Positions 2,576-63,199 of a stretch of 64,000 bases of DNA are shown here, piece by piece. The stretch comes from an uncultured beta proteobacterium. GTDB lineage: Bacteria > Pseudomonadota > Gammaproteobacteria > Burkholderiales > Burkholderiaceae_C. Position 1 is the first letter of the stretch. Every line of letters starts with the position of its first letter. The translations under genes and the position numbers were made by a program. The notes beneath the pieces are model-generated. The model was not told where the DNA came from. It was given only the letters and a program-made list of their open reading frames with translations, and searched no databases. Location: positions 715-64,714 of the forward strand of contig CAIVLG010000260.1 of the NCBI GenBank assembly GCA_903906695.1. Reading direction: 5' to 3'.

Positions 2576-3770
2576 TCGTATTCTCCCGAGCGTTTTGCAT
2601 CATGGCAATGAAACGATCAAACAAGTAGGCAATGTCGTGAGGACCGGGGGACGCTTCCGGGTGGCCCTGGAAGCAGAAGGCTGGCCGGTCGGTCCGCTCC
2701 AGACCCTGGAGAGTGCCATCGAACAGGCTGATATGGGTGGCGCGCAATTGGACTGGCAGCGACTTCTCGTCTACCGCGAAACCGTGGTTCTGGCTGGTGA
2801 TGCTGACGCGACCGCTCGCAAGGTCCTTCACCGGGTGATTGGCACCATGGTGGCCAAATTTCATCTTGAAGGTGCTGGCACCGCTGGCCAGCGCCATGAT
2901 CTGATGGCCCAGGCAGATGCCGAAGGTTGGTATCCCGGCTTGTATCAATTCCGCCGTAGCTGCAATCGCGTAGTCGCAGGGCGCGGGATCACCCGGGCCG
3001 TTGCTCAGAAATACGCCGTCGGGCTGGTAATCGAGAACAGCTGCGGCCGGGGTTTGGGCCGGTACCACGGTAACCCGACAGAAGCGCTCAGCCAACATGC
3101 GCAAGATATTGAACTTGACGCCAAAGTCATAGGCCACAACGTGAAACCGTGCGCCGCTCTGCTCGCCAAACCCTGCCCTGCCGTGCGCGTGGGACTGTCT
3201 CAATTTCCACTCGGTCTGCGTCCATTCATAGGCTGCCTTGGTCGACACCACTTTGGCCAGGTCCGAGCCCGCCATGCTGGGCGCGCCCTGCGCCAGCGTC
3301 AGCGCGCGGTCAATCGCCGGCGGCGCGACAACTTCACCCTCCGTCAGGGTCAGAATGCAGCCATTTTGTGCACCCTGGGTCCTCAGATGACGCGTCAATT
3401 GGCGCGTGTCAAGGTTGGCGATGGCCACAGTTCCTTGCTGCACCAAATATTGGGACAAGGACATCTCTGAACGAAAGTTCGACGCCACCAAGGGCAAATC
3501 CTTGATGATCAGACCCGCCGCGTGAACCTGAGCGGCTTCAACGTCCTGCCTGTTGACGCCATAGTTGCCGATATGCGGGTAGGTGAGTGTGACAATCTGC
3601 CGGCAGTAGCTGGGGTCTGTGAGGATTTCCTGGTAACCGGTTATGGCGGTGTTGAACACGATCTCGCCCACGGTGGAACCTACGGCCCCGATGGAATTAC
3701 CAACAAACACGGTTCCGTCAGCGAGCGCCAGAATGGCGGGGGGAAACGTTCCCTTTAAGGACAAAAGCAC
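2568..3770 (-). CDS. carA: Carbamoyl-phosphate synthase small subunit
   Basis: [21 protein letters not shown], glutaminase motif [19 protein letters not shown]. Confidence 0.97.
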
Positions 3771-3795
3771 TGGGTTCTCCGGCTGGGTATTGGGT

Positions 3796-3871
3796 TACGC
3801 CCAAACGTGCTCAAGGTTCAACTCTTGGCTTGCTTTTAGAGGGAAAATGGCTTGAGGAGGCTCTGGGCGTA
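3796..3871 (-). ncRNA. Structured carA 5' leader (extended imperfect hairpin), candidate cis-regulatory RNA
   Basis: TACGCCCA 3796-3803 pairs with TGGGCGTA 3864-3871, and CTCAAG 3810-3815 pairs with CTTGAG 3851-3856. It lies between a TATAAT box and the carA start. Confidence 0.5.
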
Positions 3872-3892
3872 CGGGGTGCCATGAGGCGCACG

Positions 3893-3898
3893 ATTATA
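3893..3898 (-). promoter_or_regulatory. Sigma70 -10 box (TATAAT) upstream of carA leader
   Basis: Perfect TATAAT on the minus strand, overlapping the stop codon of the TrmH-family gene. Confidence 0.55.
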
Positions 3899-4676
3899 CC
3901 GCCGGCGCACTCGCATGTAGACAAATGGCCGCCGCGGCCGCGACGTTCAGCGACTCTTCGCCGCCAGGCTGCGCGATGCGAATATGCAAGCGCGCCAGCG
4001 CCTCCAATTCAGCGCAGACGCCCTGCCCCTCATGCCCCAATGACCACGCGCAGGGCCTGGGCAGCACATTGTCGGCCTGCGCCTGGTGCAGAAACAGGCC
4101 ACGGTGAGAACTTGTAACGACGATAGGTACCGTCAAGGCAAGCAGCGTCGCCAAGTCCGCACCCTCGATCAGTTGCAAACCCCAATGTGCACCCATGCCG
4201 GCGCGCAGTACTTTTGGGCTCCACAACGCGGCAGTTCCTTTTAGTGCAATGACTTGTCTGAAACCAAAGGCCGAGGCACTGCGCAAGATGGAGCCGACAT
4301 TGCCAGCGTCCTGTAGGCGATCCAGAATGACTGACGCAACCGTCGGTTGCAAATCAGGTGCAGATGGCAGATTGAACACACATCCCATGCGCGCCGGCGA
4401 CTCAAGGGCGCTGATGTCCGCAAAAAGATCATCAGCGATGACGATGTTCTTCGGTGCAACATCAGTCAAGACCGGCGAAACAGGCCAGATGGATTCCGAA
4501 AAAACAGCCACCAGTGGTTTCATACCGCGCCTTAAAGCAGCCAGGCACAGGTGCTCGCCCTCCACCCAAAACCGACCCTGCTTGCGGTAGGCGGTGCCGT
4601 CCCGCGACAAACGGCGCAAGTCTTTCAGAAAAGCATTGTCCCGCGAAGTGAGGTGCTGCGCTGCGAATTGACTCAC
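3894..4676 (-). CDS. TrmH/SpoU family RNA methyltransferase
   Basis: [24 protein letters not shown] and [18 protein letters not shown] motifs. Confidence 0.92.
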
Positions 4677-5317
4677 GTCGGTAACCCGTACATCAACTCT
4701 GTGACCGGGCGGAAAGTCTTGCGATGCTGCGGCGAAGGGCCGTGCTGGCGCAAGGCTGCGATATGCTCGGCGGTGCCGTAGCCCTTGTGTCTGGCAAAGC
4801 CATATTGCGGGAATTGCCGGTCGTATTCAACACACCAGCGATCACGGTGCACTTTGGCAAGAATGGACGCAGCCGATATGGCGGGCACCAGGGCGTCGCC
4901 CTTGATGATGGCCTCGGCCAGCACGTCGAGCACCGGTAGTCGATTGCCATCGACCAGCACCTTGTTCGGCTTCAGACGCAGGCCATCAACCGCCCGTCGC
5001 ATCGCAAGCAGGGTGGCCTGCAGAATATTGAGTTGCTCGATTTCCTCGGCGCTCGCCTGCGCGATCGAACAGCACAGTGCCTTGGCCCGAATTTCATCAA
5101 ACAGTCTTTCTCGGCGCAGGGCGGTCAGTGTCTTGGAATCCGCCAATCCCCTGATGGGTTGCAAGTCATCCAGAATAACCGCCGCAGCGACCACAGGCCC
5201 CGCCAGCGGACCTCGTCCGGCTTCGTCGACCCCGGCCACCAGACCGGTTACATCCCAGGTCAGAGCCGTCTGACTTCGACAGTTTTTTTCAATTCTGGAG
5301 AACTTGCTGTATCGCAT
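4673..5317 (-). CDS. rnhB: Ribonuclease HII
   Basis: [40 protein letters not shown]. Confidence 0.96.
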
Positions 5318-6422
5318 GAGCGGCTATTCGAGGGGTATCACGCTGCATTCGCTCATGCAGCAATGCAAATTTCACTTGCAAGGCGGCTGTCTTCTGTGGC
5401 GAATCGAGCCACGTCAATACCGCGTCAGCGAGCGCCCGCGGTGTCGCAGCATCCTGCAAGAACTCCGGTACCACAAAATCCCGACAAAGGATGTTCGGCA
5501 AACCAACCCAGGGCTGCAATCTCTTGCGTCGCATGATCTGCCATGACAGCCAGTTCATGTGGTAGGCAATCACCATGGGACGCTTGAACAAGGCGGCTTC
5601 CAGGGTCGCCGTGCCGCTGGCAATCAGGGTCACATCACAGGCTGCCAGGACCGCATGCGACTCACCCGCGACGACTTGCAGTCGGTCTGATAAACCGCAG
5701 TTGCGCGCCGCCTGATCAATGGCGTTTCTCAGATGCGATAGCGCCGGAACCACGAACTTTATGTCAGCTGACGCCTCTCGCACAATCGCTGCCGCCTGAA
5801 AGAACCTGACAGCATGATGTTCGATCTCTGATTTCCGGCTACCTGGCAAAATCGCCACCACCCTATCGTCTGTTCGCAATCCCAATTTGAGTCGGGCCGC
5901 CGCCCGATCTGGCACCATCGGAATCATATTTGCCAAAGGATGACCCACGAAGGTGGCGGCAATGCCGTGCCGGGCCAAAAAGTCAGGTTCAAATGGAAAG
6001 ATGCACAGCACATGATCGACACAGCGGCGAATCTTGTCAATTCGTTCCGGTCGCCAGGCCCACACTGAGGGAGACACGAAATGCACGGTCTTGACACCCT
6101 GCGCCTTCAGCGCGAGCTCCAGATCCAGATTGAAATCGGGCGCGTCCACGCCGATGAAAAGATCAGGGCGCTGCAATAGCAGGCGAGCCTTGAGTTGTTC
6201 ACGAATGCCGACCAGCTCCCGGTAGCGACTCAGTACGTCCCAGCCGTAACCATGCAGCGACAATTTCTCAAACGGCCACCAGGACACAAAGCCTCGACGC
6301 GCCATCTGCGGCCCACCGATGCCAACCGCGCTCAGTTCATGCCAATATTCGCGCAAACCGTCGAGCAGCAGTCCGGCCAGCAAGTCGCCAGAGGATTCGC
6401 CGGCCACCATGCCGAACTTCAT
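5289..6422 (-). CDS. lpxB: Lipid-A-disaccharide synthase
   Basis: [43 protein letters not shown]. Start placed at ATG 6422, directly after the lpxA stop. Confidence 0.95.
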
Positions 6423-6423
6423 C

Positions 6424-7218
6424 CTAGCGCACGATTCCGCGTTGCGGCGAGGAGTCATCCAAGAACGTCAGCATCATCTGGACGTCAGGTACGGACTCCG
6501 GAAACTTGTCAATCAATCCGGCAATGCGTTCACGGGCTGCCTGCAGCGTCAAATCCTCACGGTACAAGGCCTTGTACATGGTTTTGACAACGGACATCCG
6601 TTCAGCCGAAAAACCACGCCGGCGCAAGCCCTCGAAGTTCATGGAACGCGCCTGCGCGGGTTGACCTTGGCACATCACAAATGGCGGCAGGTCCGCCAGC
6701 AAAACGCTGCTGATGGCCGTCATGCTATGGGCTCCGACGCGTACAAATTGGTGTACCCCAGTCAGCCCACCCAACATCACCCAATCCCCCACGTGAACGT
6801 GTCCGGCCAGGGTCGCACAGTTGGCAAAAATGGTATGGCTGCCAACGACGCAATCGTGTGCCACATGCACGTAGGCCATAAACCAGTTGTCATCACCGAC
6901 CCGCGTCACACCCTGGTCACCGGGCGATCCGATATTGAAGGTGCAAAACTCACGAATCGTATTGTGGTTACCGATGATCAACTGGCATGGCTCACCGGCG
7001 TATTTCTTGTCCTGCGGAATAGCGCCCAAGGAATTGAATTGAAAAATGCGATTGTGGCAACCAATCTCGGTGTGCCCCTCCAACACGCAGTGTGGACCAA
7101 CGGTCGTCCCGGCTCCAATTTTGACGTGGGGCCCAATCACCGTGTAAGGACCCACTGTGACTGAACCGTCAATTTCAGCCTGGGGATCAACGATTGCGCT
7201 GGCATGAATCGCCGTCAT
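6424..7218 (-). CDS. lpxA: UDP-N-acetylglucosamine O-acyltransferase
   Basis: Hexapeptide repeats, [31 protein letters not shown]. Confidence 0.96.
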
Positions 7219-7229
7219 GCGGAGCCCCC

Positions 7230-7667
7230 TTACTTTACGGTTCGCATGGCGCAGGTCAATTCGGCTTCCACAGCGATTTGATCATTGACCATGGCACGCG
7301 TCCTGAATTTGAAGATTCCCGCTTTCGCACGCAGCAGTTCAGCCTCCAGAATGAGCTGATCGCCAGGTTCAACCGGGCGTCTGAAACGCACGCCGTCCAT
7401 GCCCGCAAAGTAGTAAATCATCTGATCGTCGGGCGTCGCGTTGAGTGCGTCGAAAGACAGCAGGGCTGAAGCCTGGGCCAGAGCTTCCAGCATCAGCACA
7501 CCGGGCATGACCGGTCGATTCGGGAAATGACCTTCAAAAAATGGCTCGTTGATGGTGATGTTCTTCAATGCCTTGATGCTTTTTCCTTTGTCGATTTCCA
7601 ACACGCGATCGACCAGCAGGAATGGATAACGATGCGGCAGCTGTTTAAGAATTTTGTGAATGTCCAT
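7230..7667 (-). CDS. fabZ: 3-hydroxyacyl-ACP dehydratase
   Basis: [35 protein letters not shown]. Confidence 0.97.
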
Positions 7668-7690
7668 CTTGCTTCATCCAATTGGAGGTT

Positions 7691-8665
7691 TCATACCTTC
7701 AGTTTGTTTTCCAGGGTGCGAATACGGTCACGCAGGCGATGCAACTGCTTGAGTGAAGCCGCGTTCTTCTCCCAAACGGAATTCTCATCGATCGGAAAGA
7801 TGCCGCTGTAGTGCCCGGCTTTGCGAATCGAACGGGTGACGAGCGTCGCCGCCGAAATATTAACCCCGTCCGCTAACACCAGATGTCCAAGCACCATCGC
7901 GCTGCCGCCGAGAGTGCAATGGGCGCCAATCGTGGCGCTGCCCGCCACGCCGACACAACCCGCCATGGCAGTGTGCTTGCCGACACGTACGTTGTGGCCA
8001 ATCTGGATCAGGTTATCGAGCTTGACGCCATCCTCGATCACCGTATCCTGCAGAGCGCCGCGATCAATGCAGGTATTTGCACCGATCTCAACATCATCGC
8101 CAATTCGCACCGCTCCCAACTGCTCAATCTTCTCCCAGGCTTCTGCATTGGGAGCAAATCCGAACCCATCGGCTCCGACGACAACCCCTGGATGCAACAG
8201 ACAACGCTTGCCGATAACACAGCCCTGTGACACCGTGACCCGGGATTTGAGCTCGGTCTCGGCCCCAATGCGGGCTCCGCGTTCGATCACGCACAAAGGC
8301 CCAATCTTGGCGCTTGGGTCAACGAAGGCTTCAGCGTCAATCACGGCGCTCGGGTGCCTGAGCGGCCCGGCAGGCTGCTCCATGCCCCTTTTCCAGAGCT
8401 GGGTAAGACGGGCAAAATACAAATAGGGTTGATCCGAGACGATGCAGGCCCCGCGTGTCAACGCGGCGTCGAGCGTCTGCGGACTCACAACCACGCACGC
8501 CGCCCTGGATGTTGCAAGCTGGTTCTGGTACCTGACATCACTCAGAAAACTCAAATCACTGTCGGTCGCGGAATCGAGCGGCGCCAGTCCTTCAACAATC
8601 AGATCATGTTCGCCGTGAAGTTCACCCCCGAGCGCCTTGACGATTGACCCCAGACTCAGGTTCAC
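7691..8665 (-). CDS. lpxD: UDP-3-O-(3-hydroxyacyl)glucosamine N-acyltransferase
   Basis: [31 protein letters not shown]. Confidence 0.96.
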
Positions 8666-47101: not shown

Positions 47102-47998
47102 TTGTCAGTCGTGTTGCCGCGCCACGCCGACATCGCGAAATACGCAGCCAAGGCAGCGGGTAAGAACCAGTGCGTGTTTTTTACAAACCAGATGTACCAG
47201 CGGGTGCAGGAACGCATGACGATGGAGCAGGCACTGCGCCAGGCCGTAGCCGACGAGAGTCTGGAGGTCTGGTTTCAACCTGTCGTCGAGCTCACGACCG
47301 GGCGCGTGATGGCGCTCGAAGCACTGGCCCGCTGGCTCCGTGCGGATGGCTATTGCCCGCCCAGTCAGTTCATTGGGATCGCTGAAGAATCCGACTTGAT
47401 CCACTCTTTGGGCCTGATGATCGCGAAAAAATCGGTAGCCGCACTGGCTGTGATTCGCGAAGCACATCCATACATCACGATGGGCGTCAACCTCTCGGTG
47501 CGGCAGCTGCGAAACAAGCAGACACTGGCGCTGCTCTGTGAGCTGGTGGATGCGCAGCAACTGCCACGCGACAGTGTGCACTTTGAAGTGACCGAAAGCG
47601 ATGTTGCAAAAGACTTTCTGCTGCTCGAAGAACACCTCAATCTCTACGTGCGGGCCGGCTTCTCGCTGCACCTCGATGATTTCGGCACCGGTCAATCCTC
47701 GCTGCATCGCTTGCAGGGCTTGCCTGTGTCGACCCTGAAAATCGATAAATCATTTGTCGATCTGATCGAAACAGGTGACGAACGCTTCGTCAAAACCATT
47801 CTCCTGCTGAGCCAGCAACTGGGCCTGGCCGTGATCGCCAAGGGTGTTGAAACCCAACATCAGCGCGACCGCTTGCAGGCCTTGGGCTGCCAGTTCATCC
47901 AGGGCTACTTCTACGCCGAGCCCATGTCCTTGCCTGACTTACTGAAGTTCTTGACCAGTCAAGCCGAACCGACGCTCCCCGAAAACCCTGACGCCTGA
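47102..47998 (+). pseudogene. Truncated GGDEF-EAL gene: EAL domain plus last helix of GGDEF, probably inactive
   Basis: Starts with the GGDEF C-terminal helix remnant LPRHADIAKYAAKAAGKN. LEALARW, FEVTE, DDFGTG and KID are present, but IAKGVET replaces the catalytic AEGVET. TTG start with no clear RBS. Confidence 0.65.
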
Positions 47999-48292: not shown

Positions 48293-50116
48293 ATGACGTT
48301 CAGTGAAGGAACGACGGCAAAAATAGGCCTGACAGCCGAAATGACGCAAAAGGCGCTTGAAGCTTTGCGCGTGCATCAAGTTGAGCTGCAAATGCAAAAC
48401 GAGGAGTTGCGCCAGATACAGCACAAGCTGGATGCGGAGCGCGAGCGCTACTTCGACCTCTACGATCTGGCGCCAGTAGGCTATTGCACCATCAGCGCAG
48501 CGGGGTTGATACTCGAAGCCAACCTTAGCCTCGCCACCATGCTGGGTGTGGCGCGCGTTCACTTGGTCCAGCATCGGCTCAGTCACTATCTGCATGGCGA
48601 CGACAGCACGACCATCTACTACCAATTTTGCAAGCAACTGCTGGCAAGCCGCATGGCGCAAACTTGCGAGTTACAAATGGCGTCCAAGAGTGGCCAGCCG
48701 TTCTGGACCAGACTGATGGCCACCGCAATGCCAGGCAAGAACGATGAAGTCGTGCTGCGCATCGTTCTGAGCGACATCACTGAGCAACGCAGAACCACCA
48801 GGCAACTGGAGGAGGTGAGCGCGGAGCAGGCCGCCATTCTCAACAGCGACATTGTTGGCATCATCCGGCTCAAGGACCGAAAATTCGTCTGGGTCAATGG
48901 CCTGTTTGCTCGTCTGCTGGGTTACGCGCCGGACGAACTGATCGGTCAGCCAAGCAGTATTTTCTATGCCAGCGAGGAAGAAGCGCTGGCTTTGGCAAGA
49001 GCCGCTTACCCAGTCATAGCCAGCGGACACCTGTTTCACGCCGAACAACGATTCATGCGCAAGGACGGTGGACCGTTCTGGGCCGAAGTCAGTGCCTGCC
49101 TGCTCAAGCCGGGCAGCCAGGAATCGATCTGGTCATTTATTGACATCAACGAACGCAAGCGGATGCAGGCGGCGCTGAGCACAAGCGAAGCGCTTTTCAA
49201 GCTCATCTTCAACGAAGCGCCGCTGGGCATCGCCTTGACCGACAGCGCCACTGGCCATATTCAGGTTGTCAATCCGATGTTTGCCAGAATCGTGGGCCGC
49301 AGCGTCGAAGAAATATCCCGGATTGACTGGATGAGCATCACGCATCCGGACGACCTGCAAGAGGATATGGACAAAATGGCCTTATTGAAGACCGGGAGAA
49401 TCACCGGATTCCGGGTCGAGAAGCGCTATCTGAGACCGGGTGGCGAGCCAGTCTGGATCAATATGACCATCGCCGCCCTGGAGCTGACCAACAATAACGC
49501 CGAGCGGCGCCATCTGTGCATCGTCGAGGACATCAGTGAGCGCAAGCGAATGGAAGAGCAGGTTCGACAATTCGCTTTCTTCGACGCGCTGACCGCACTA
49601 CCCAATCGCCGTCTGCTGATGGACCGGATGAGCCAAGCCATCAGCGCGTCCAAACGAAGCGGCTGCTACGGCGCCTTGATCTTCCTGGATCTGGACAACT
49701 TCAAACCGCTCAACGACCAGCACGGGCATGCTGCTGGTGACCTACTCCTAATCGAGGCGTCCCGTCGCCTCAATGAGGGCGTGCGTGCCGTTGACACGGT
49801 GGCGCGCTTGGGCGGTGATGAATTTGTGGTACTGCTGGGCAGCCTGAGCACGAACAAATTGGAATCCACCGCACAGGCCCGGCGTATTGCCGAGGCATTC
49901 CGCAGCAGTCTGGCCTTGCCCTATGTGTTTTCATCGCCGAGCAGTAACAGCGGCCCCGTTGCCATTGAGCATCACTGCAGCGCCAGCATCGGCGTGGTGA
50001 TGTTCAACACCGCTAGCCACGACCCGCAACAGCTCCTGAAATGGGCTGACGCCGCCATGTACCAGGCCAAGCAGGCGGGGCGCAACCGGGTCCAGCTTTA
50101 CGCCGGCAACACATAG
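48293..50116 (+). CDS. Diguanylate cyclase: coiled coil + 3 PAS/PAC + GGDEF
   Basis: HQVELQMQNEEL coil, three PAS/PAC units ending in SDITE, IDINE and EDISE, DALTALPNRR, FLDLDNFK, RAVD I-site, RLGGDEF. Confidence 0.92.
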   Translation: MTFSEGTTAKIGLTAEMTQKALEALRVHQVELQMQNEELRQIQHKLDAERERYFDLYDLAPVGYCTISAAGLILEANLSLATMLGVARVHLVQHRLSHYLHGDDSTTIYYQFCKQLLASRMAQTCELQMASKSGQPFWTRLMATAMPGKNDEVVLRIVLSDITEQRRTTRQLEEVSAEQAAILNSDIVGIIRLKDRKFVWVNGLFARLLGYAPDELIGQPSSIFYASEEEALALARAAYPVIASGHLFHAEQRFMRKDGGPFWAEVSACLLKPGSQESIWSFIDINERKRMQAALSTSEALFKLIFNEAPLGIALTDSATGHIQVVNPMFARIVGRSVEEISRIDWMSITHPDDLQEDMDKMALLKTGRITGFRVEKRYLRPGGEPVWINMTIAALELTNNNAERRHLCIVEDISERKRMEEQVRQFAFFDALTALPNRRLLMDRMSQAISASKRSGCYGALIFLDLDNFKPLNDQHGHAAGDLLLIEASRRLNEGVRAVDTVARLGGDEFVVLLGSLSTNKLESTAQARRIAEAFRSSLALPYVFSSPSSNSGPVAIEHHCSASIGVVMFNTASHDPQQLLKWADAAMYQAKQAGRNRVQLYAGNT

Positions 50117-51879
50117 CCACGCTGGCGAAACAGCGTCAGGCAGGCGTCCGCCACTCGTCCGTCAAAATGGCTTGGGTGCAAGCGGGTAATTTCTTCCAGC
50201 GCGGCGTCGATGCCGAGTGCGCTCCGATAGGGACGATGAGAACTCATCGCCTCAACCACGTCGGCGACGCACAGGATGCGCGCACCGAGCAGTATCTGCT
50301 CGCCCCGGAGTCCCTGCGGATAACCCGATCCGTCCATCAGTTCATGGTGTTGCAGAACCATCTGCGCAATCGGCCAGGGAAACTCAATGCCTTTGAGGAT
50401 GTCGTAACCAGCTTGCGAATGAACCTTGATCAGGCTGTACTCAATCGCGCTGATCTTGCCCGGCTTGCTCAGTATCTCGGCTGGCACCTGGGTCTTGCCC
50501 ACATCGTGCAGCAAACCCGCAAGGTGAATCGCATGCACTTCCTGCGCCGGCAATCCCATCTCACCGGCGATGGCTGCTGCCAGTGCGGCAACCCGCACCT
50601 GGTGGCCGGAGGTATAGGGGTCCCGCATTTCGACAATGATCGCAATCGCCCGCACCGTGTCTTCCAGGTTCTTCTCGAGCTGCGTCACGTGCTGTTCGTT
50701 CTTCTTCCACGCCAGATCGCGCTCCAGCCGGATGTGCACGGCCTCCACGCCGAAAGTCAGATCAGCGCTCATCTCTTCGAGCAGCATGACTTCAGCCGGA
50801 ACAAAGGCATTGACTTCGGCGGCATAGACGTGCAGCACGCCAAACACGGCTGCCTGGGCGTCCAGCAATGGCAAGGCAATGCAGGCGAGGTAACCGCGTT
50901 GCAGCGCGGCCTCGCGGCAGGGCAGAAAGAGTGGATCGCTGGCAATCTCCTGACAGAGTTGTGTCGTCGCGCTGCGCACCGCACGCCCACTCGGCCCCAT
51001 GCCGCGCTCGCCCGCCCCCCAGACATTGCACACCGCATCCAGATAGCCCTCATCATGACCCGCAGACGCCATCACCTTGATCGATTGCTGCTCATCGTGT
51101 TGGACATAGCCGACCCAGGACATGACATAAGCCTGCTGCCCGACGATGGCCTGACAAATGTGTTGCAGCAGTTCATCTTCATTCCTGACGTGGACCAGTT
51201 CCCGGTTCACGGCGACCAGATTGGCCAGGGCGCGGTTCACGTGCTCGGTCTTCACTTCAGCGCGCGTCTTGTCATCGACCACGCGTTGCAGCAGCTGACG
51301 TGACTGCTCGGATGCCACCAGCAACTCCTGCGCCAATTGCTCGCCAGCAATTTTGGCCGCGTTTTCCTTCTGCTCCCTCAGGTCGGTTGCTACCAGACAG
51401 AACAAGTCAGGCTCTAAGCCCCCGACCATGCGCGTGACGGAAATATAGATCGGAAGTTCAGTGCCGTCCGGCGCACTCAGTCGTAACTCGCAGCGCCGTG
51501 CCGCGTCGCCATCGGCCGCGAGCATGGACGCCAGAATGCGCTGCTGATCCGGCGCCAGCCAGCGCTCGATCGAGCCGCCAATCACCTGCTCCAGCGGCGT
51601 CTTGAGCATCTCGGCAAAGCTGCGGTTGGCATAAAGCGTGATGCCATGCGCCGTCAGCAACAGAGCGCCTTCAAACATTTCCTCGACCAGCTTGCGATAG
51701 ACCTCATCGGCGCCTTGGAGCGCAACCAGTTGCTCGCCAGCCGCGCTGGTGACCAGCAGCGCATCGACCTCGCCACCGTGCAGCGCGCGCACGAGATCCT
51801 CGGCCTGGCTCAGGCGCGCGCGCAAGGTCTTGTTCTCGGCTCGCAGTCGTTCTTCCGTGGTGGCTGATTTCGTCATCAT
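50098..51879 (-). CDS. c-di-GMP phosphodiesterase: coil-PAS-GAF-HD-GYP
   Basis: RDPYTSGHQVRV, LLHDVGK, HHELMDGSGYP, VADVVEAMSSHRPYR; PAS starting YRKLVEEMFEG; GAF ending SADLTFGV. Confidence 0.92.
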   Translation of the reverse strand: MMTKSATTEERLRAENKTLRARLSQAEDLVRALHGGEVDALLVTSAAGEQLVALQGADEVYRKLVEEMFEGALLLTAHGITLYANRSFAEMLKTPLEQVIGGSIERWLAPDQQRILASMLAADGDAARRCELRLSAPDGTELPIYISVTRMVGGLEPDLFCLVATDLREQKENAAKIAGEQLAQELLVASEQSRQLLQRVVDDKTRAEVKTEHVNRALANLVAVNRELVHVRNEDELLQHICQAIVGQQAYVMSWVGYVQHDEQQSIKVMASAGHDEGYLDAVCNVWGAGERGMGPSGRAVRSATTQLCQEIASDPLFLPCREAALQRGYLACIALPLLDAQAAVFGVLHVYAAEVNAFVPAEVMLLEEMSADLTFGVEAVHIRLERDLAWKKNEQHVTQLEKNLEDTVRAIAIIVEMRDPYTSGHQVRVAALAAAIAGEMGLPAQEVHAIHLAGLLHDVGKTQVPAEILSKPGKISAIEYSLIKVHSQAGYDILKGIEFPWPIAQMVLQHHELMDGSGYPQGLRGEQILLGARILCVADVVEAMSSHRPYRSALGIDAALEEITRLHPSHFDGRVADACLTLFRQRGYVLPA

Positions 51880-52202
51880 GCGAGAGGCCGAATATCCAGA
51901 CCGACCAGAACACGCGCGGTGTCCGACATATCGCCAACGAGCCGGCGCAGCGGCGGCGGCAGTTTCTTGATCAGGGTCGGCACCGCAACAATCTGTTCTC
52001 CCTTGGCCAGTTGCGGCTGCTGATAGAGGTCAATCACCACCAGCGCATAGCGTCCTTTGAGATGCTCCTCGCAGATTCTCCTGATATTGCCGATGGCGCG
52101 GACTGAATTGGTGGTCTGTCCGGCGACGTACAAACGCAGTACGTAGCGGTCTTCTCTTGCGCCACTTGACGCATCCCCGGATTTCACAACCGGTGTTTTC
52201 AT
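51876..52202 (-). CDS. kaiB: Circadian clock protein KaiB homolog
   Basis: YVLRLYVAGQT, IDLYQQPQLA, PTLIKKLPPPLRRLVGDMS; ATGA overlaps with both neighbours. Confidence 0.93.
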   Translation of the reverse strand: MKTPVVKSGDASSGAREDRYVLRLYVAGQTTNSVRAIGNIRRICEEHLKGRYALVVIDLYQQPQLAKGEQIVAVPTLIKKLPPPLRRLVGDMSDTARVLVGLDIRPLA

Positions 52203-53926
52203 TTCTTGTCCAGCGCAGTATCAGCCTGCCGGCTCAGGCCCATTTGGCCACGTTCCCGTGTCAGCTGCAGCGCCTGCGTCTGCTCCTGCCCGATCAGGCT
52301 CATGGTCTCGGTTGCCTGTGCCTCGAACTCGGCGCGCAGCGCTGTAATTTGCGCCTCCAGCGCGCCAAGTTTTCGCTCCACGCCACGCTGCTGGCGTTCA
52401 ACTCCCTGTGCGCGCAACAAGGCTTCCGCCTTTTCCTGCGCCTCCCGCGCCAGTCGCGCCGAGCCCGTCAACACACCGCTGGCGCCGACGTACACATCAC
52501 GCAATTCGACGCCGTGACTGGTGAGCAGGAACTCGCGGATCTGGTTAGAGTGCTCCATTCCGCGTGACTTCAGGATGTTCAAACTGCGGTTGCGTTCGCC
52601 ACCAAGTTCGATGTCGCGCAGAATGAGCCAGGTATCGATCAGCGACGAGACAGCGATGTCGGTTTGCTCAAGCGCCGAGCCGCCGGCTGTTAGATTGGTG
52701 AACAAGCCGGTGATTTGCCTGATCTTGAGGAAGTCCACCAGTCTCATGCACATGGCCTTGACTTCCGTGGCATTTCCGCCGACGACGAAACTGCTCAGGG
52801 GATCGATGGCGACCGCCTGCGGATCGAAGGCATTGATCGCCTTGTGCATCGTCGTCAGGTGCATCTCCAGCCCGCTGAAGCTGGGTCGATTTGCCTGGAA
52901 CTGCAGCAAACCCATCTTCACCCACGGTGCCAGATCGATGCCGATGGAACGCATATTGCGCATGATCTGGCTGGGTGACTCCTCAAAGGCAAAATACAGC
53001 GCGCGCTCACCGCGCCGGCAGGCGGCGTCGATAAAGTGTGCCGCCAGACTGGTTTTGCCTGTGCCGGCCGTGCCCGAGACCAGTACGCTGCTGCCACGGT
53101 AATAGCCATTGCCGCTGAGCATGGTATCCAGACGCGCAACGCCGGTAGAGATGTGCGCATTGCTGACCGGATGCTGCAAGCCCAGCGAGGTGATGGGCAG
53201 CACCGAGATGCCGTCTTCGTCAATCAGGAACGGATACTCGTTGGTGCCGTGGGTCGAGCCCCGATACTTGACGATGCGCAGACGTCGCGACGAGGTTTGC
53301 TCGCTGACGCGGTGATCGAGCACGATCACGCAGTCCGACACATATTCTTCCAGCCCCTGGCGCGTCAGGGTCATCTCGCCACGCTCACCGGTGATGATGG
53401 CGGTCACGCCTTTTTCTTTCAGCCAGCGAAACAGGCGGCGCAGTTCAGCGCGCAGGATGAGCTGATTTGGCAAACCGGCAAACAGCGATTCGATGGTATC
53501 AAGCACCACGCGCTTGGCGCCAATCTCTTCAATCGCTTGGCCCAGACGGATGAAGAGCCCTTGCAGATCGTATTCGCCGGTGGCCTCGATCTCGCTGCGC
53601 TCGATATAGACAAAGTCAACCAGCAACTTCTTCTTCCGAACCAGGTCTTTCAGGTCAAAGCCCAGCGAGGCCACGTTGGTCGTCAGCTCCTGCGCCGTTT
53701 CCTCAAAGGTCACAAAGACACCGGGCTCGTCGAACTGCCGCGCGCCGTTCACCAAAAACTCCATCGCCAACACCGTCTTGCCGCAGCCGCTGGGGCCGCA
53801 GACCAGCGTCGGCCGTCCCTGTGGCAAGCCGCCACCGGTGATTTCATCGAGACCCTGGATGCCGGTGGGCGCCTTCGGAAATGGCGGTCTTTTCTCTTGT
53901 TTCAAGTGCGGCTTTGCTCTTGGCAT
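52199..53926 (-). CDS. kaiC: Circadian clock protein KaiC homolog (double-domain, C-terminal coiled-coil tail)
   Basis: CI GPSGCGKT, FVTFEE, KYRG; CII GTAGTGKT, FAFEES, KSRG; phosphosite region AVSSLIDTW. Start 53926 has an AGAGGA RBS (53944 is the alternative). Confidence 0.94.
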   Translation of the reverse strand: MPRAKPHLKQEKRPPFPKAPTGIQGLDEITGGGLPQGRPTLVCGPSGCGKTVLAMEFLVNGARQFDEPGVFVTFEETAQELTTNVASLGFDLKDLVRKKKLLVDFVYIERSEIEATGEYDLQGLFIRLGQAIEEIGAKRVVLDTIESLFAGLPNQLILRAELRRLFRWLKEKGVTAIITGERGEMTLTRQGLEEYVSDCVIVLDHRVSEQTSSRRLRIVKYRGSTHGTNEYPFLIDEDGISVLPITSLGLQHPVSNAHISTGVARLDTMLSGNGYYRGSSVLVSGTAGTGKTSLAAHFIDAACRRGERALYFAFEESPSQIMRNMRSIGIDLAPWVKMGLLQFQANRPSFSGLEMHLTTMHKAINAFDPQAVAIDPLSSFVVGGNATEVKAMCMRLVDFLKIRQITGLFTNLTAGGSALEQTDIAVSSLIDTWLILRDIELGGERNRSLNILKSRGMEHSNQIREFLLTSHGVELRDVYVGASGVLTGSARLAREAQEKAEALLRAQGVERQQRGVERKLGALEAQITALRAEFEAQATETMSLIGQEQTQALQLTRERGQMGLSRQADTALDKK

Positions 53927-53970
53927 GGTTGGGATCCTCTTCATGACTCATTCATGTGGCTCACCAGAAG

Positions 53971-56433
53971 CTAACGGCAGCTCACAAGCACCTGCTTGAG
54001 ATCGAGTTCGCCACGCAGAACTTTCTCGATGGCGTGCTGCTCAAATGTCACCATGCCGGTGGCGACGGCTTCCTGCAGTATCTTGGTCGAGTTCACCCTG
54101 GCCTGGATCATCGCCTTGATGGAAGCCGAGGCGACCAGCAGTTCATAGACGCCCAAACGCCCTTTGTAGCCGCTGAGTTCACACATGGGGCAACCCACCG
54201 GCGCGTGCAGTGTGATCGCGCCCTCCTTGTCGCCATAGAGCGAACGCCAGCTGGCAACGATCGCGACCGGGTCCAGATCAAGGTCATGGCAATACTCGCG
54301 CGCGAGTCCCTCCAGATCCTGGGGCGATGCCTGGTAGGGTTGGCTGCATGAAGGGCAGAGCCGACGCACCAGTCGCTGACCCAGAATGCCGATCAAGGCG
54401 TCCGAGAAATTGAACGGGTCCAGTCCAAAGTCGAGCAAGCGAATGATACTTTCGACAGCACTATTGGTGTGCATGGTGGACAGCACCAGGTGACCTGTAA
54501 GGGACGCCGCAATCACCGTGTGGGCAGTCTCCGGGTCTCGGGTCTCACCGACCATGATCACATCAGGATCAGCGCGCAGAAAGCTGCGCAACACGCTGGG
54601 AAAAGACAAGCCGAGCTTCTCGTTGACCTGAACCTGGCACAAACCGTCCTGGCTGATCTCGATCGGGTCTTCCACCGTCCAAATCTTGCGCTCTGCCGTA
54701 TTGATATGGTTAAGCAAGGAGTGCAGTGTCGTGGTCTTGCCGGAACCGGTAGGACCGCAGACGAAGATCAGTCCAAAGGAACGAAGCGCCATCGATTTGA
54801 AATCGGCCAGGACGCGTGGCGAAAAACCGAGTTGTTCCAGGGACAGGGTGCGTGGCGCAGACAGGATGCGCATGACAACGTCTTCCATACCGCCCGCTGT
54901 GGGCATGATCACGACTCGCAACTCGATGCGTCGGGGACCGAAATCGCGGAACCGGATCCTGCCATCCTGGGGCCTGCGATGCTCCGAGATGTCGAGCGAG
55001 CTCATGATCTTCAGACGTGATACCAGGGCTGCGCGAAAGTTGGGCGGAACATCGATATAGGATGACAAAACACCGTCGATGCGAAAGCGCACCCGACTCG
55101 GTTTCTTGCCGATCCTGGATTCGATGTGGATGTCGGATGCCCCCTGGTCAAAGGCATCCGTAATCATCTTGTTGACCAGGCGCACCAGCGTGTTGTCGGA
55201 CTCGGTCACCACTTCGGCCTGTGCGCGTTCGGTGAACTTGTCCTCTACTCCAAGCTCTGCGATGATCTCACCGATGTGCCCGTTGTCTGCGTCCGCACCG
55301 TAGAACTGTGCGATGGCCGACAAAAGATCCTCGTGCTCGGCAATCACCGGATCGACTTTCAAACCGGTGAAGAATTCAATTTCATGCAGCGCCTGCAATG
55401 ACAATGGATCTTCCATGCTCACCACGATTCTTCCATCGGTACGGTACATAGGCATGACGTGATGCTTGCGGGCGAGTTCGGCCGACACCGCCTTGATGGC
55501 GTTCGGATCGTACTGAAAGCGCGACAGGTTGACGCACGGAAAACCGAGCTGTTCGACAAGAACCTTGCGCACCACTTCGCGCGTCACCACGCCCATTTCC
55601 ACCAATATGGCGCCGATCGGTTTGCTCCGGTCACGACCTTGTTTTGCCAATGCCGCATCGCGTTGCACCATGCTGATGATCCCTTCCTGGACCAGCACGT
55701 CGCCGAGCTTGATGTGCGCCATCGTCCGCTGGCGCGCCAGAGCCATTTCAAGTTGCTCGCGCGTGACCAGATCCTGATCGGCGAAGTAGGCACCTATCTT
55801 GCGATCGCGCAATTCATGCTGGATTTGCAGTCCCACTTGCAGGGCCTCCGTTGAAACTGCATATTGATCATGCAAGGTCTGTCCGACCCGATCGCCAACG
55901 TTGTAGCTCGAGAATGCTGCTGTTGGAACAAAGCAGCGCACGATCTCATCGGCCGAATCGATCACAAACAGAAACAGTCCTTCCTTGCGGATCACGATCG
56001 ACATGAGTGCGTACTGGACGGTCGATGCGTCCTTGAAGGTCACTACACACTGACGTCGGGTGGTACTGGCGCGCGCTTCAAGAGCACCCGGTGGCACCGC
56101 CATCGGGATCGCTTCGAGTTCAACGTTCCGGCATAGATACAGGCTGCGCAGGGTCTCGAACAGCACGTGACGAGATGAACCCAGGCTGGACGCAATGTCC
56201 AAAGTCCCTGCTTCGAAGTCAATCCTGCTGACCTCACCGACAATTTTTTCACCGTCGCTCAGAGTGGCTATGCCGCGTTCCGGCTTGGAGTCAAGGTCTT
56301 CACAAACCAAGCGCATATGGTGCGGCACGGGCCAGTGCAAGGCATTCGGCCCCGCATCCAAGGGAGCGACTGCGCCAGCGGGACTGGCGGTCGATGTTGC
56401 CAATGGCAGCGGAGTGGGTCGGGATAGGTTCAT
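53971..56433 (-). CDS. GspE/PilB/MshE-family secretion ATPase with MshEN-like repeats and an uncharacterised N-terminal domain
   Basis: GPTGSGKTTT, TVEDPIE, DPDVIMVGETRD, TGHLVLSTMHTN, CPSC...CPMC; repeats of xxG-x(20)-Q (e.g. KLGDVLVQEGIISMVQRDAALAKQ). Confidence 0.9.
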   Translation of the reverse strand: MNLSRPTPLPLATSTASPAGAVAPLDAGPNALHWPVPHHMRLVCEDLDSKPERGIATLSDGEKIVGEVSRIDFEAGTLDIASSLGSSRHVLFETLRSLYLCRNVELEAIPMAVPPGALEARASTTRRQCVVTFKDASTVQYALMSIVIRKEGLFLFVIDSADEIVRCFVPTAAFSSYNVGDRVGQTLHDQYAVSTEALQVGLQIQHELRDRKIGAYFADQDLVTREQLEMALARQRTMAHIKLGDVLVQEGIISMVQRDAALAKQGRDRSKPIGAILVEMGVVTREVVRKVLVEQLGFPCVNLSRFQYDPNAIKAVSAELARKHHVMPMYRTDGRIVVSMEDPLSLQALHEIEFFTGLKVDPVIAEHEDLLSAIAQFYGADADNGHIGEIIAELGVEDKFTERAQAEVVTESDNTLVRLVNKMITDAFDQGASDIHIESRIGKKPSRVRFRIDGVLSSYIDVPPNFRAALVSRLKIMSSLDISEHRRPQDGRIRFRDFGPRRIELRVVIMPTAGGMEDVVMRILSAPRTLSLEQLGFSPRVLADFKSMALRSFGLIFVCGPTGSGKTTTLHSLLNHINTAERKIWTVEDPIEISQDGLCQVQVNEKLGLSFPSVLRSFLRADPDVIMVGETRDPETAHTVIAASLTGHLVLSTMHTNSAVESIIRLLDFGLDPFNFSDALIGILGQRLVRRLCPSCSQPYQASPQDLEGLAREYCHDLDLDPVAIVASWRSLYGDKEGAITLHAPVGCPMCELSGYKGRLGVYELLVASASIKAMIQARVNSTKILQEAVATGMVTFEQHAIEKVLRGELDLKQVLVSCR

Positions 56434-56767
56434 TAGTTTCAAGAGTTTCCAATTCAGTCCTGCCGGGACTGGAGCGAGCACAGCTGTGCCTGCGGGGTTT
56501 CGATGCAGTGCAGATTGACTTTCAGCATCTGATCCAGGTCAGCATTGCGTGCTACGCCAAGCGTGGCGTAATAGTCCTCATACTTCATGATGCGGTAATT
56601 TCCCATGGCACAGGTATCGGGTCTGTGCGCTATCGCACTGACACTGACAACGTGCAGGCAAGTAAAGGCGTATGCCCGTGTCCAAAGCTACTTTATTTTT
56701 GGTAGGATTTACGTCGACCGCGATGTGGTGGTCAATTGATTTGACAATCTTCTGCTGGGGGATACCG

Positions 56768-59969: not shown

Positions 59970-60527
59970 GTGACTCTAACCATTATGGATGTTGATTACC
60001 GCATCGCCTTCGATCTTGCCCCCGTCGGGCTGATTCTGTCACGCAACCGCGTCATTGTGGACTGTAACCGGCACGTCTGCGAGATGTTTGGTGTGTCACG
60101 GGAGTTGCTAGCCGGCGCCTCGTTTCAAGTCTTGTATCCCAGTGCCATTGAGTTCGAACGCACCGGGTCCCGCATTGCACCGATTCTGAATCGTAGCGGC
60201 ACCTACGCCGATGACCGCATTATGAAGCGAGCCAATGGCGAGACTTTCTGGTGCCACGTCACCGGAAGGGCTTTGAACCCCAGCGCGCCGCACGAGGCAG
60301 GCATCTGGAGCTTTGAGGACTTGAGTTCACACCGTCCCGTCAAGGCCGACCTGACTGCCCGTGAACGCGAAGTGGCGGCGCATCTGTTGGATGGTCTGAC
60401 GTCCAAGGAAATCGGAAAAGCTCTGTGCATCAGCCACCGCACGGTTGAAATCTACCGGGCCCGGCTGATGCGCAAATACAAGGCCTCCAACACCGGCGAC
60501 CTGGTACATCGATTGATGGCGGGGTGA
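59970..60527 (+). CDS. PAS + LuxR-type HTH transcriptional regulator
   Basis: AFDLAPVGL...FWCHVTG PAS; LTAREREV...SKEIGKALCISHRTVEIYR HTH. Confidence 0.9.
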   Translation: MTLTIMDVDYRIAFDLAPVGLILSRNRVIVDCNRHVCEMFGVSRELLAGASFQVLYPSAIEFERTGSRIAPILNRSGTYADDRIMKRANGETFWCHVTGRALNPSAPHEAGIWSFEDLSSHRPVKADLTAREREVAAHLLDGLTSKEIGKALCISHRTVEIYRARLMRKYKASNTGDLVHRLMAG

Positions 60528-61489: not shown

Positions 61490-63199
61490 ATGTATTCGCA
61501 CCATTTTGGCCTGACGCAAGACCCGTTTTCGATCGCCCCCGACCCGCGTTACCTGTTCATGAGCGAACGGCACCGCGAGGCCTTGGCGCACCTGTTGTTC
61601 GGTGTCGCCGGTACCAACGGTTCGGCCCGTGGCACCGGCGGTGGCTTTGTCCTGCTGACGGGCGACATCGGCACCGGGAAAACCACCATCTGTCGCTGCT
61701 TTCTGGAGCAGATCCCCGCCGGTTGTCATGTGGCTTACATCTTCAACCCCAAGCTGACTGTCAGCGAATTGCTGCAGTCGATCTGCGAAGAATTTCATAT
61801 CAAGGTGGCAAACACGGCGGCGATCCCACCGACTGTTAAGGATTACATCGACGCGCTCAATGTTTTCCTGCTTGAAGCTCATGCGGCCGGGCAAAGCAGC
61901 GTGCTGATCATCGACGAGGCGCAGAACCTCAAGCCCGACGTGCTGGAGCAGTTGCGACTGCTCACCAATCTGGAAACCAGCGAGCGCAAGCTTTTGCAGA
62001 TCGTGCTGATCGGGCAGCCCGAATTGCGCAGCATGCTGGATCGTCCCGAACTCGAGCAACTGGCGCAACGCGTCATCGCACGGTTTCACCTTGACGCCTT
62101 GACCGCGACCGAGAGCACGCAGTACATCGCGCACCGCTTGGCAGTGGCCGGTCTGAACAATCCCTTGCCGTTCGACAAGCGCTCGCTGCAGCATATCCAC
62201 CGTCTGACGCGCGGCGTGCCGCGCCGCATCAACCTGCTGTGTGGTCGCGCCCTGCTCGGAGCCTGGGCCAATGGACTGCACCGGGTTGACCGAAAGGTGG
62301 TCGACAAAGCCGCGGCAGAAGTATTCGGCACAGAAGGCGTTAGAAGCCTCGGCGCGGGAAAGAATTCAAAAATCTATTGGACGGCGGGTCTGGTGTTAGT
62401 GGTGCTCGCCGGCGCGACCGCTTTCCTGTTCTGGCCGGTGCAGCGTGCCAAGCAAGCGCTACCCCAAACCCCTATCGCATCGCCGCTGGTGCCGACGCCC
62501 CCATCCGCCCCAACTCTGGTGGTGCCCGTACCCGAACGAGCGGCATCGACTCCCAGCGCGGCAGCCCCCCGCCCTCCTGAAGAGATCGAGGCGCTGCTGC
62601 CAAAACTGCCGCAGGACATCAATCTCGCCTGGCACGACTTGGCGCTGGTCTGGAAGTTGCCGCCAATGGACGGCGATCCCTGCCGCGGGGCCTCTGCTCA
62701 GGGCTTGCAGTGCTACCGAACCGGCAATTTGAGCGTGCCGCTGTTGCGCCAACTCGGCCGTCCCGGCATCCTGACCCTGCAGCTTGAAAAAAGCCCGCCT
62801 TTCTACGCCTTGCTGGTCGATCTGTCCGAGCAACACGCCACGCTGCGCCTGCCCGATGGCCTGCATCAGGTGACGCTGCTCTCGCTCGGCCGACTGTGGC
62901 GCGGCGATTTCGCGACCTATTGGCGAGCACCACCCGACTACGTTCCCGACCTGCGTGACGGCAGCGCGGGAGCAGCGGTTACCCATCTTGTGCAACAACT
63001 GGATTTGCTTGATGGAACGCCAGCGCGGCCAGCAGGCGCCCCGCCTCAAGTCCTCGATCCGACCCTGCGGGGCCGCGTACGTGCCTTCCAGCGGGCGCAG
63101 GGACTCAAGCCGGACGGGCAGCCGGGTCCGTTGACGTTCATGCAGCTTGAACGTGCCAATGGCCAAAGCGAGCCCCGCCTGCAAACCGAGCCGCGCTAA
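61490..63199 (+). CDS. exeA: ExeA/GspA family AAA ATPase with peptidoglycan-binding domain
   Basis: PFSIAPDPRYLF, GDIGTGKTT, IIDEAQNL, GQPEL, GVPRRIN, TM segment, VRAFQRAQGLKPDGQPGP. Confidence 0.88.
   Translation: MYSHHFGLTQDPFSIAPDPRYLFMSERHREALAHLLFGVAGTNGSARGTGGGFVLLTGDIGTGKTTICRCFLEQIPAGCHVAYIFNPKLTVSELLQSICEEFHIKVANTAAIPPTVKDYIDALNVFLLEAHAAGQSSVLIIDEAQNLKPDVLEQLRLLTNLETSERKLLQIVLIGQPELRSMLDRPELEQLAQRVIARFHLDALTATESTQYIAHRLAVAGLNNPLPFDKRSLQHIHRLTRGVPRRINLLCGRALLGAWANGLHRVDRKVVDKAAAEVFGTEGVRSLGAGKNSKIYWTAGLVLVVLAGATAFLFWPVQRAKQALPQTPIASPLVPTPPSAPTLVVPVPERAASTPSAAAPRPPEEIEALLPKLPQDINLAWHDLALVWKLPPMDGDPCRGASAQGLQCYRTGNLSVPLLRQLGRPGILTLQLEKSPPFYALLVDLSEQHATLRLPDGLHQVTLLSLGRLWRGDFATYWRAPPDYVPDLRDGSAGAAVTHLVQQLDLLDGTPARPAGAPPQVLDPTLRGRVRAFQRAQGLKPDGQPGPLTFMQLERANGQSEPRLQTEPR

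Follow-up and report, generated by a model that had tools for sequence, protein, structure and literature searches.

By what route does a KaiBC timer that lacks KaiA pass its state on to the cell? This question is raised by a locus in a 64,000-nucleotide (nt) stretch of contig CAIVLG010000260.1 from an uncultured beta proteobacterium; this stretch is hereafter the window, to whose positions all unlabelled coordinates refer, and L and G numbers denote comparison loci and genomes, G000 being the source genome. A Nudix protein encoded in the window falls into one 90% cluster with proteins labelled Rhodoferax sp., Comamonadaceae and Burkholderiales, so the source is probably a metagenome-assembled genome of a Rhodoferax-like bacterium. 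The list of open reading frames (ORFs) places four genes in a row on the minus strand, encoding an ATPase with MshEN and T2SSE domains, KaiC, KaiB and a PAS-GAF-HD-GYP protein. Our analysis suggests that kaiC, kaiB and the gene after them, whose product joins an N-terminal module to GAF and HD-GYP domains, form one of the widespread KaiA-less KaiBC operons, and that the third protein would be a Kai-gated phosphodiesterase in a local cyclic di-GMP (c-di-GMP) circuit with the ATPase as receptor. We assign this reading a probability of about 0.6.

The two Kai proteins were examined against family profiles and structures. KaiC (52199-53944, minus strand) matched Pfam KaiC over two stretches (367 bits) and PRK09302 (752 bits, cut-off 408), and has two KaiC domains and a C-terminal coiled-coil extension. 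A motif scan recovered both Walker A motifs (GPSGCGKT and GTAGTGKT), both catalytic EE sets (FVTFEET and YFAFEES) and the KYRG and KSRG motifs, and bore out the intact Walker A, EE and Arg-finger motifs described in the first-pass annotation. The best PDB match was KaiC of Rhodobacter sphaeroides (8DBA, 651 bits, versus ~360 bits for Synechococcus elongatus KaiC), with an alignment spanning residues 23-570 of 581, coiled coil included. The phosphosite at residue 433 is of the Ser-Ser type, reading SSLIDTW here and SSLMDGW in R. sphaeroides. KaiB (51876-52202, minus strand; 108 amino acids (aa), single copy) scored 94.7 bits in Pfam (cut-off 27) and 110.3 bits with PRK09301 (cut-off 110). The 98%-complete source assembly contains one KaiC and one KaiB, and a search of it with the KaiA profile PF07688 gave no match, the S. 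elongatus positive control being matched, so the lack of kaiA first noted for the window holds for the whole assembly. Judged from these matches, this KaiC belongs to the KaiA-independent R. sphaeroides "hourglass" type, in agreement with the type proposed earlier for the pair.

The R. sphaeroides KaiC is a KaiA-independent hourglass driven by ATP/ADP (Pitsawong et al. 2023, PMC10076222; PDB 8DBA/8FWI). The text of that study does not address the output, and the terms "histidine kinase" and "operon" are both absent from it. Our locus resembles R. sphaeroides KaiBC in its KaiA-less kaiC-kaiB pair, both Walker A and EE sets and the KaiC coiled coil, but differs from the system of that study in having an HD-GYP gene after kaiB and a PilB-like ATPase gene before kaiC. 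Unlike the self-sustained KaiABC oscillator of cyanobacteria, it resides in a genome without KaiA.

Reading of the junctions showed that an ATGA overlap of 4 nt links kaiC to kaiB (AAGAAATGAAAACA), and another links kaiB to the HD-GYP gene (GCATGATGACG). The spacer between the ATPase gene and kaiC (53945-53970, minus strand) is 26 nt long, or 44 nt if kaiC starts at its second ATG (53926), which has AAGAGGA 8 nt upstream and is better placed than the first. Family scores, intact motifs and this reading of the junctions together establish that the gene order and the motifs are real, and the four same-strand genes, two 4-nt overlaps and 26-44-nt gap reported at first pass are thereby upheld. A scan for promoters and terminators found no terminator-like hairpin in any junction of the four genes, and since nothing in the locus exceeded the shuffled background, it rules out obvious junction terminators only. 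Given the 26-44-nt spacing, the ATPase gene is probably co-expressed with kaiC.

The protein encoded after kaiB (50098-51879, minus strand; 593 aa) matched HD_5 (130.9 bits), HD, GAF_2 and PAS in Pfam. Its HD-GYP catalytic domain, the HD_5 match, covers residues 414-576 (50152-50640, minus strand) and its motifs are whole, with HDVGK at 458 and HHELMDGSGYP, of the HHExxDGxGYP type, at 511, as the first-pass annotation had stated. The N-terminal 205 residues (51265-51879, minus strand) form a Kai-associated module, modelled by AlphaFold with a predicted local distance difference test score (pLDDT) of 89.9 as a helix (8-34), a GEVDALLV/GEQLVAL beta-hairpin (40-53), a PAS core and a long exit helix (168-204).

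Comparison with relatives indicated that this module, rather than the HD-GYP domain, is what follows kaiB throughout. Four of 40 relatives have a kaiC orthologue, and each of them encodes, next after KaiB, a protein whose first 170-230 residues correspond to those of the HD-GYP protein, at 43-48% identity in three and at 25%, a weak match, in G030, a genome of another family; the remainder differs, the protein being a hybrid histidine kinase in G013 and a PAS4-GGDEF-EAL protein in G006. A further search with residues 1-230 returned 120 module proteins, whose C-termini are HisKA/HATPase, HD_5, GGDEF-EAL, GGDEF, sigma-54 AAA+, SpoIIE or HWE kinase domains. Six loci from this search, picked for their non-kinase types, were inspected: the output is an HD-GYP protein of one of three architectures in L017, L020 and L021, a sigma-54 activator in L053, SpoIIE with STAS partners in L054 and GGDEF-EAL in L055. 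The module stands directly after kaiC-kaiB or kaiC-kaiB-kaiB in all 11 contexts, the source locus and the weak G030 match included. The order kaiC-kaiB-HD-GYP, which could have been unique to the source genome, therefore occurs in three further metagenomic lineages (L017, L020 and L021), and in L017 the three-gene core is truly orthologous, with 75% identity in KaiC and 60% over the full length of the output protein.

Whatever the effector, the module keeps the pattern LRARLxEAEETLRAIRSGEVDALVVxGxxGEQVFTLKGADxxYRxLxExMxEGA...TDLTEQK in an alignment of nine output types. Against 21 family members (alignment A2) its identity is 34-58%, with (near-)invariant columns at G36, E37, V38, D39, A40, Y61, R62, E70 and G71; its motifs are invariant over the hybrid histidine kinase, GGDEF-EAL, HD-GYP, sigma-54 and SpoIIE outputs, and it is 43-57% identical to the N-termini of proteins whose C-termini are unrelated. 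When 1.84 billion representatives were searched with a profile, 6,462 matched at E <= 1e-30, and nearly all of the best 150 carry the module at residues 1-200. In an unselected census of 55 family representatives, HATPase_c was found in 37, HD_5 in three and GGDEF plus EAL in two. The statement in the first-pass annotation that Kai operons mostly end in a PAS histidine kinase is consistent with the 37 of 55, and the three with HD_5 mark HD-GYP as a minority yet recurrent effector on a dedicated Kai-operon module. As far as could be searched in the literature, the adaptor module and its range of effectors are undescribed.

Because the same module is fused to classic effectors (histidine kinases, a sigma-54 activator, SpoIIE and GGDEF-EAL), the module protein would act as an output. 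The earlier proposal of a c-di-GMP enzyme as the Kai output is thus supported by gene context, an intact HD-GYP domain lying after kaiB behind the same N-terminal module as in the kinases, and this link from Kai to c-di-GMP would extend a known pattern. GGDEF/EAL proteins, and also histidine kinases, have been reported directly after kaiC-kaiB (De Luca et al. 2011, PMC3164672), and PAS genes are described as co-operonic with kaiBC outside cyanobacteria (Loza-Correa 2014, as cited in PMC9478674). Our locus shares with the operons of De Luca et al. the order kaiC-kaiB-signalling protein, the N-terminal PAS domain and a c-di-GMP enzyme as third gene. In contrast, the literature searched on operons of that type holds no mention of HD-GYP, sigma-54 or SpoIIE effectors or of a neighbouring T2SSE ATPase, and does not define the helix-GEVDALVV-PAS module as their common denominator. 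Likewise, literature searches that paired KaiB with HD-GYP or KaiC with PilB turned up neither an HD-GYP output nor a bacterial T2SSE ATPase encoded next to kaiC. The only experimental link between Kai and a c-di-GMP protein is KidA of S. elongatus (PAS x4-GGDEF-EAL), which binds fold-switched KaiB (2022, PMC9478674); unlike our output protein, KidA is part of a KaiABC oscillator and its gene stands apart from the kai operon, and its catalytic role is unproven. The first-pass annotation knew of no description of such an arrangement, which does not hold for the class as a whole in view of the GGDEF/EAL genes after kaiC-kaiB and the KidA-KaiB pair, but, within the literature searched, does hold for the HD-GYP output and the ATPase link. 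The locus is therefore a recurring variant of a known operon type and not a new kind of system; new here are the HD-GYP output and the link to the ATPase.

A second type of module was found in the clade of L040, where the N-terminus of the output protein has the same order of helix, GEVDTV, hairpin and PAS. The position after kaiC-kaiB is limited to proteins that include the helix and GEVD part (G181 and G243), and the bare PAS core of this type is common, without Kai linkage, in an order-level search. Alignment of the GEVDALVV and GEVDTV types by hhalign gave a weak match (probability 9%, E 0.0037) with the motifs in register. A query with a KaiB::GGDEF-EAL fusion suggested a very large GGDEF-EAL family, which was rejected since most matches in the order-level search share the PAS core alone and have no link to Kai. 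The fusion itself is found in Hydrogenophaga as KaiB::helix-GEVDTV-PAS-GGDEF-EAL (723-734 aa, KaiB domain 75.6 bits), at L041 3601-5805, L042 964-3135 and in L051, which come from the metagenome-assembled genome (MAG) GCA_030652975.1 and two JGI contigs. The fusion gene has no kaiC within 8 kb, a distance beyond which no genome-wide search was made. The fusion matches, part for part, the kaiB and output genes that stand separately in L040; by the Rosetta-stone argument, this colinearity speaks for a contact of KaiB with the output protein.

Several side observations concern these Kai operons. Most related operons carry a tandem kaiB pair, and the source genome, G006 and L021 retain solely the output-adjacent copy. 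When the kaiB of the window was compared with the copies in L013, L015, L016, L017, L020, L053, L054 and L055, it matched the output-proximal kaiB of two-copy relatives at 71-79% identity versus 48-52% for the first kaiB (L017, L020 and L021). In L016 (G001:C147, 3900-4930), L055 (3575-5291) and L022 (3693-5271), kaiC is split into several frames or short ORFs and kaiB and the output gene are kept, which may reflect either decay of the Kai operon or errors of assembly. At L054 (205-7771) the module has SpoIIE (PP2C) as its fusion partner, three STAS genes and an anti-sigma-type kinase gene (HATPase_c_2) lying nearby, and at L053 (2486-6626) it is fused to a sigma-54 AAA+ activator, which suggests that Kai timers are also wired to partner-switching and sigma-54 transcription. 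In L017 (12159-15548) and L020 (5420-7123), the Kai output gene is immediately flanked by a further HD-GYP gene, whose product has a periplasmic dCache sensor.

The surroundings of the source locus are rich in c-di-GMP genes. A PAS-PAS-PAS-GGDEF diguanylate cyclase gene (48293-50116, plus strand; Pfam GGDEF 137.8 bits, and PAS), with intact GGDEF and RxxD motifs, converges with the HD-GYP gene, their 3' ends overlapping by 19 bp. Upstream of the cyclase gene is a stand-alone EAL phosphodiesterase gene (47102-47998, plus strand; Pfam EAL 198.2 bits) with EAL and DDFGTG motifs. Together, the GGDEF, EAL, HD-GYP and MshEN genes thus place c-di-GMP synthesis, two kinds of hydrolysis and a candidate receptor within 9.4 kb.

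These data suggest the following mechanism. KaiC of the R. sphaeroides type would cycle between its phosphorylated and unphosphorylated states, and KaiB would bind phosphorylated KaiC and either recruit the output protein by its N-terminal module or release it. Recruitment or release of the module would switch the HD-GYP domain and so gate the hydrolysis of c-di-GMP, and the GAF domain may supply a second input to the output protein. The timed phosphodiesterase, the convergent PAS-GGDEF cyclase, the EAL protein and the ATPase as receptor would then make up a local c-di-GMP circuit.

The putative receptor in this circuit is encoded at 53971-56433 on the minus strand from an ATG start (820 aa), or at 53971-56481 from a GTG start; orthologues favour the ATG. 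The protein matched T2SSE (385.7 bits) and MshEN (74.8 bits) in Pfam and, in two stretches, the NCBIfam c-di-GMP motif NF053729 (64.3 bits, cut-off 38). A regex search located the full MshEN motif pair, KIGAYFADQDLVTREQLEMALARQ and KLGDVLVQEGIISMVQRDAALAKQ, as tandem 24-residue motifs at residues 212-235 and 242-265 (55639-55800, minus strand), followed by a third, weaker copy. Based on these motifs, the ATPase is a candidate c-di-GMP receptor. Its Walker A and B, Asp box, His box and Cys4 elements are whole (GPTGSGKT, EDPIE, DPDVIMVGETRD, GHLVLSTMHTN and CPSC...CPMC), and its best PDB matches were PilB (3JC8, 402 bits) and PilF (6F8L, 396 bits). It stays under the equivalog cut-offs of both PilB (TIGR02538, 494.6 versus 675.65) and GspE (TIGR02533, 463.1 versus 630.25).

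Eleven T2SSE ATPase genes are present in the source genome, and T2SSF platforms occur on three contigs only (C238, C15 and C285), each beside its own ATPase; the genome search found none on the kai contig. The candidate that this ATPase is the PilB or GspE of the genome was rejected, since it falls under the cut-offs and all three platforms are already paired. Moreover, no platform, pilin or secretin gene stands beside any member of its family in 12 dereplicated contexts, on which all context counts below are based. The suggestion at first pass that it is a pilus or secretion motor is accordingly unsupported. The MshEN domain (PMC5013675) and PilB as a signalling protein (PMC5544727, PMC6957770) are established, and our ATPase resembles MshE, PilB and PilF in its T2SSE core with all boxes, Cys4 and tandem 24-residue MshEN motifs. 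It differs from them in its scores under the PilB/GspE cut-offs, an N-terminal extension of ~190 residues, the lack of platform, pilin and secretin neighbours and a GGDEF cyclase as the usual partner of its family.

The extension adds ~190 N-terminal residues, of which about residues 34-190 (55864-56334, minus strand) are family-specific and form two small five-stranded beta-barrels in an AlphaFold model (pLDDT 71.3). It is kept at 30-52% identity within the family (alignment A1), has no Pfam match and gave weak tandem-Tudor/Sm-like matches in Foldseek with a template modelling (TM) score of ~0.25. With a moderate model and this TM score, a PilZ or PATAN identity could not be shown. The ATPase is one of three long orphan T2SSE ATPases of the source genome; the other two (ORFs of 836-868 aa) are on G000:C204 (L037, 6915-11552) and G000:C32, the former flanked by a Ser/Thr protein kinase gene and an APH-type phosphotransferase gene.

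Congeners contain only paralogues of the ATPase, with ~30% identity and in unrelated contexts. True orthologues (57-67% identity over the full length) are rare and come from MAGs of Polaromonas, Hylemonella, Ideonella and Hydrogenophaga and from a few metagenome contigs, which suggests a family of rare orphan PilB-like ATPases of Comamonadaceae-type bacteria. The commonest neighbour of the family is a GGDEF cyclase gene, directly upstream or nearby in half of the contexts (6/12). Kai parts occur in three of the 12: the source locus; L040, with the order ATPase, REC-LuxR, kaiC, kaiB and PAS-GAF-GGDEF-EAL; and Hydrogenophaga, with the order KaiB::output fusion, MASE3-PAS-GGDEF and ATPase in three assemblies. 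L040 belongs to a different Kai clade, because its KaiC is only 38% identical to that of the source genome. In the ATPase tree, in which L057, mis-extracted and hence long-branched, was disregarded, each of the three Kai-linked ATPases belongs to a different subclade, and the Kai parts beside them represent two Kai clades. Recurrence of the ATPase beside Kai/c-di-GMP modules in two further lineages suggests more than chance. As a separate observation, the 12.7-kb contig of L056 carries three T2SSE ATPases and no platform gene; at 2096-8084, a family member preceded by a GGDEF gene faces, in convergent orientation, another long MshEN ATPase (834 aa) and a PilT-like one (376 aa).

What weighs against a Kai-gated phosphodiesterase with an ATPase receptor concerns the position of the ATPase on the one hand, and the direction of signalling and the substrate of the HD-GYP domain on the other. 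As to the first, the ATPase may be a bystander, the functional unit being kaiC-kaiB-HD-GYP, with a rearrangement of an accessory region having put the ATPase gene upstream and its c-di-GMP role being independent of Kai. Indeed, kaiC has no adjacent ATPase gene in twelve other Kai loci and genomes (G013, G006, G001, G030, L017, L020, L021, L053, L054, L055, G181 and G243), so that L040 apart, the other Kai operons examined are without it; Kai is missing from 9 of the 12 ATPase contexts; and the Polaromonas and Hylemonella genomes that bear the ATPase have no kaiC. The region is not kept among congeners and lies in accessory DNA, with orthologues in 4 of 40 relatives for kaiC, 0 of 40 for the ATPase and 0 of 30 for the neighbouring cytochrome c; therefore, the juxtaposition of ATPase and kai genes could be recent and unselected. 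An empty-site test via the divergent cytochrome c gene found no orthologue in 30 congeners and hence no empty site. A possible gene scar also lies just upstream of the ATPase start, where a 44-codon ORF (56454-56588, minus strand) opens with MKYEDYYATLGVARNADLDQ, J-domain-like (DnaJ/CbpA) by eye, and then diverges; it has no Pfam match and may be the scar of the rearrangement that placed the ATPase. Against this stand the adjacency of two rare gene families in three lineages, three ATPase subclades and two Kai clades, the 26-44-nt gap without a terminator, and c-di-GMP as the currency common to all partners. A bystander ATPase is therefore a serious possibility that we nevertheless regard as unlikely. 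Of the self-contained four-gene module proposed in the first-pass annotation, the adjacency of Kai and ATPase genes stands, recurring in 3 of 12 contexts, but the ATPase is no fixed first gene, 9 of 12 contexts being without Kai; it appears to be a facultative, recurrent partner of the Kai module, outside its core.

A more far-reaching reading is that a KaiBC hourglass times the orphan PilB-like ATPase through a c-di-GMP window set by KaiB-docked HD-GYP or GGDEF-EAL proteins, possibly with direct docking as in ArlH-ArlI, and that helix-GEVD-hairpin-PAS is a universal plug through which KaiA-less Kai timers can be wired to any effector, be it a kinase, a c-di-GMP enzyme, a sigma-54 activator or a PP2C phosphatase. 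We hold this only tentatively and consider it rather doubtful.

As to direction and substrate, the PAS-GAF-HD-GYP protein might instead be an input to, or a tuner of, the Kai timer, or its HD-GYP domain might act on 3'3'-cyclic GMP-AMP (3'3'-cGAMP) or sense a nucleotide, and hence exert no control over c-di-GMP. Only the fact that the C-terminal domains are effectors points to the output direction; PAS and GAF domains are sensors, and the change that the PAS domains of KidA cause in the clock period does not depend on its GGDEF/EAL domains (PMC9478674). Further, c-di-GMP is only the candidate substrate of the HD-GYP domain, because the best structural relative, V-cGAP3 (5Z7C, 126.8 bits), is a 3'3'-cGAMP phosphodiesterase. 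However, the c-di-GMP phosphodiesterase PmGH (4MCW) scores nearly equally at 123.6 bits, the locus is surrounded by GGDEF, EAL and MshEN genes, and the presence of the module on histidine kinases, the sigma-54 activator, SpoIIE and GGDEF-EAL favours output. An input role or another substrate is thus improbable in our view.

Action of a KaiC-family protein on an ATPase of the T2SSE family has its nearest precedent in ArlH-ArlI of the archaellum, whose interaction is phosphorylation-dependent (bioRxiv 10.1101/2021.03.19.436134). As there, a KaiC-family gene here adjoins a T2SSE-family ATPase gene; unlike there, where ArlH is a single-domain protein in a complete filament machine, our locus has a two-domain KaiC, KaiB, its own output protein and no filament genes, and an interaction of KaiC with the ATPase would be speculation. 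Docking of KaiC or KaiBC on the hexameric ATPase, with the phosphostate modulating the ATPase and c-di-GMP as a second input, would accord with the control of ArlI interaction by ArlH autophosphorylation, the position of kaiC immediately 3' of the ATPase gene, the recurrent Kai neighbours of the ATPase family and the unexplained N-terminal tandem beta-barrel domain as a possible docking site, but is very improbable given the REC-LuxR gene between ATPase gene and kaiC in L040, a KaiB domain and not KaiC nearby in Hydrogenophaga, the absence of Kai for most family members and the single-domain build of ArlH, which is a relative of KaiC but not a double-domain KaiC.

Two further genes lie on the opposite strand, 3.5-7 kb from the ATPase gene. 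One (59970-60527) encodes a small PAS-LuxR regulator, and the other (61490-63199) an ExeA-like protein with AAA_22 and a peptidoglycan-binding domain, a type of accessory protein of type II secretion systems and type IV pili.

The output pathway of KaiA-less KaiBC timers has so far been undefined, and a concrete, testable answer is suggested by the locus described here and its relatives. The candidate is a conserved N-terminal module encoded after kaiB and joined to interchangeable effectors, only a minority of lineages having a c-di-GMP enzyme in this place. For the HD-GYP variant, phosphodiesterase activity would offer a simple read-out of the Kai state, and the ATPase, as a candidate downstream receptor, brings into view a rare, orphan family of MshEN ATPases to which no function has been assigned. 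If the module were indeed a universal plug, it would answer how primordial KaiBC clocks transmit time. Timed c-di-GMP signalling, if true, would connect lifestyle switching with a primordial clock in Betaproteobacteria that are non-photosynthetic or facultatively phototrophic.

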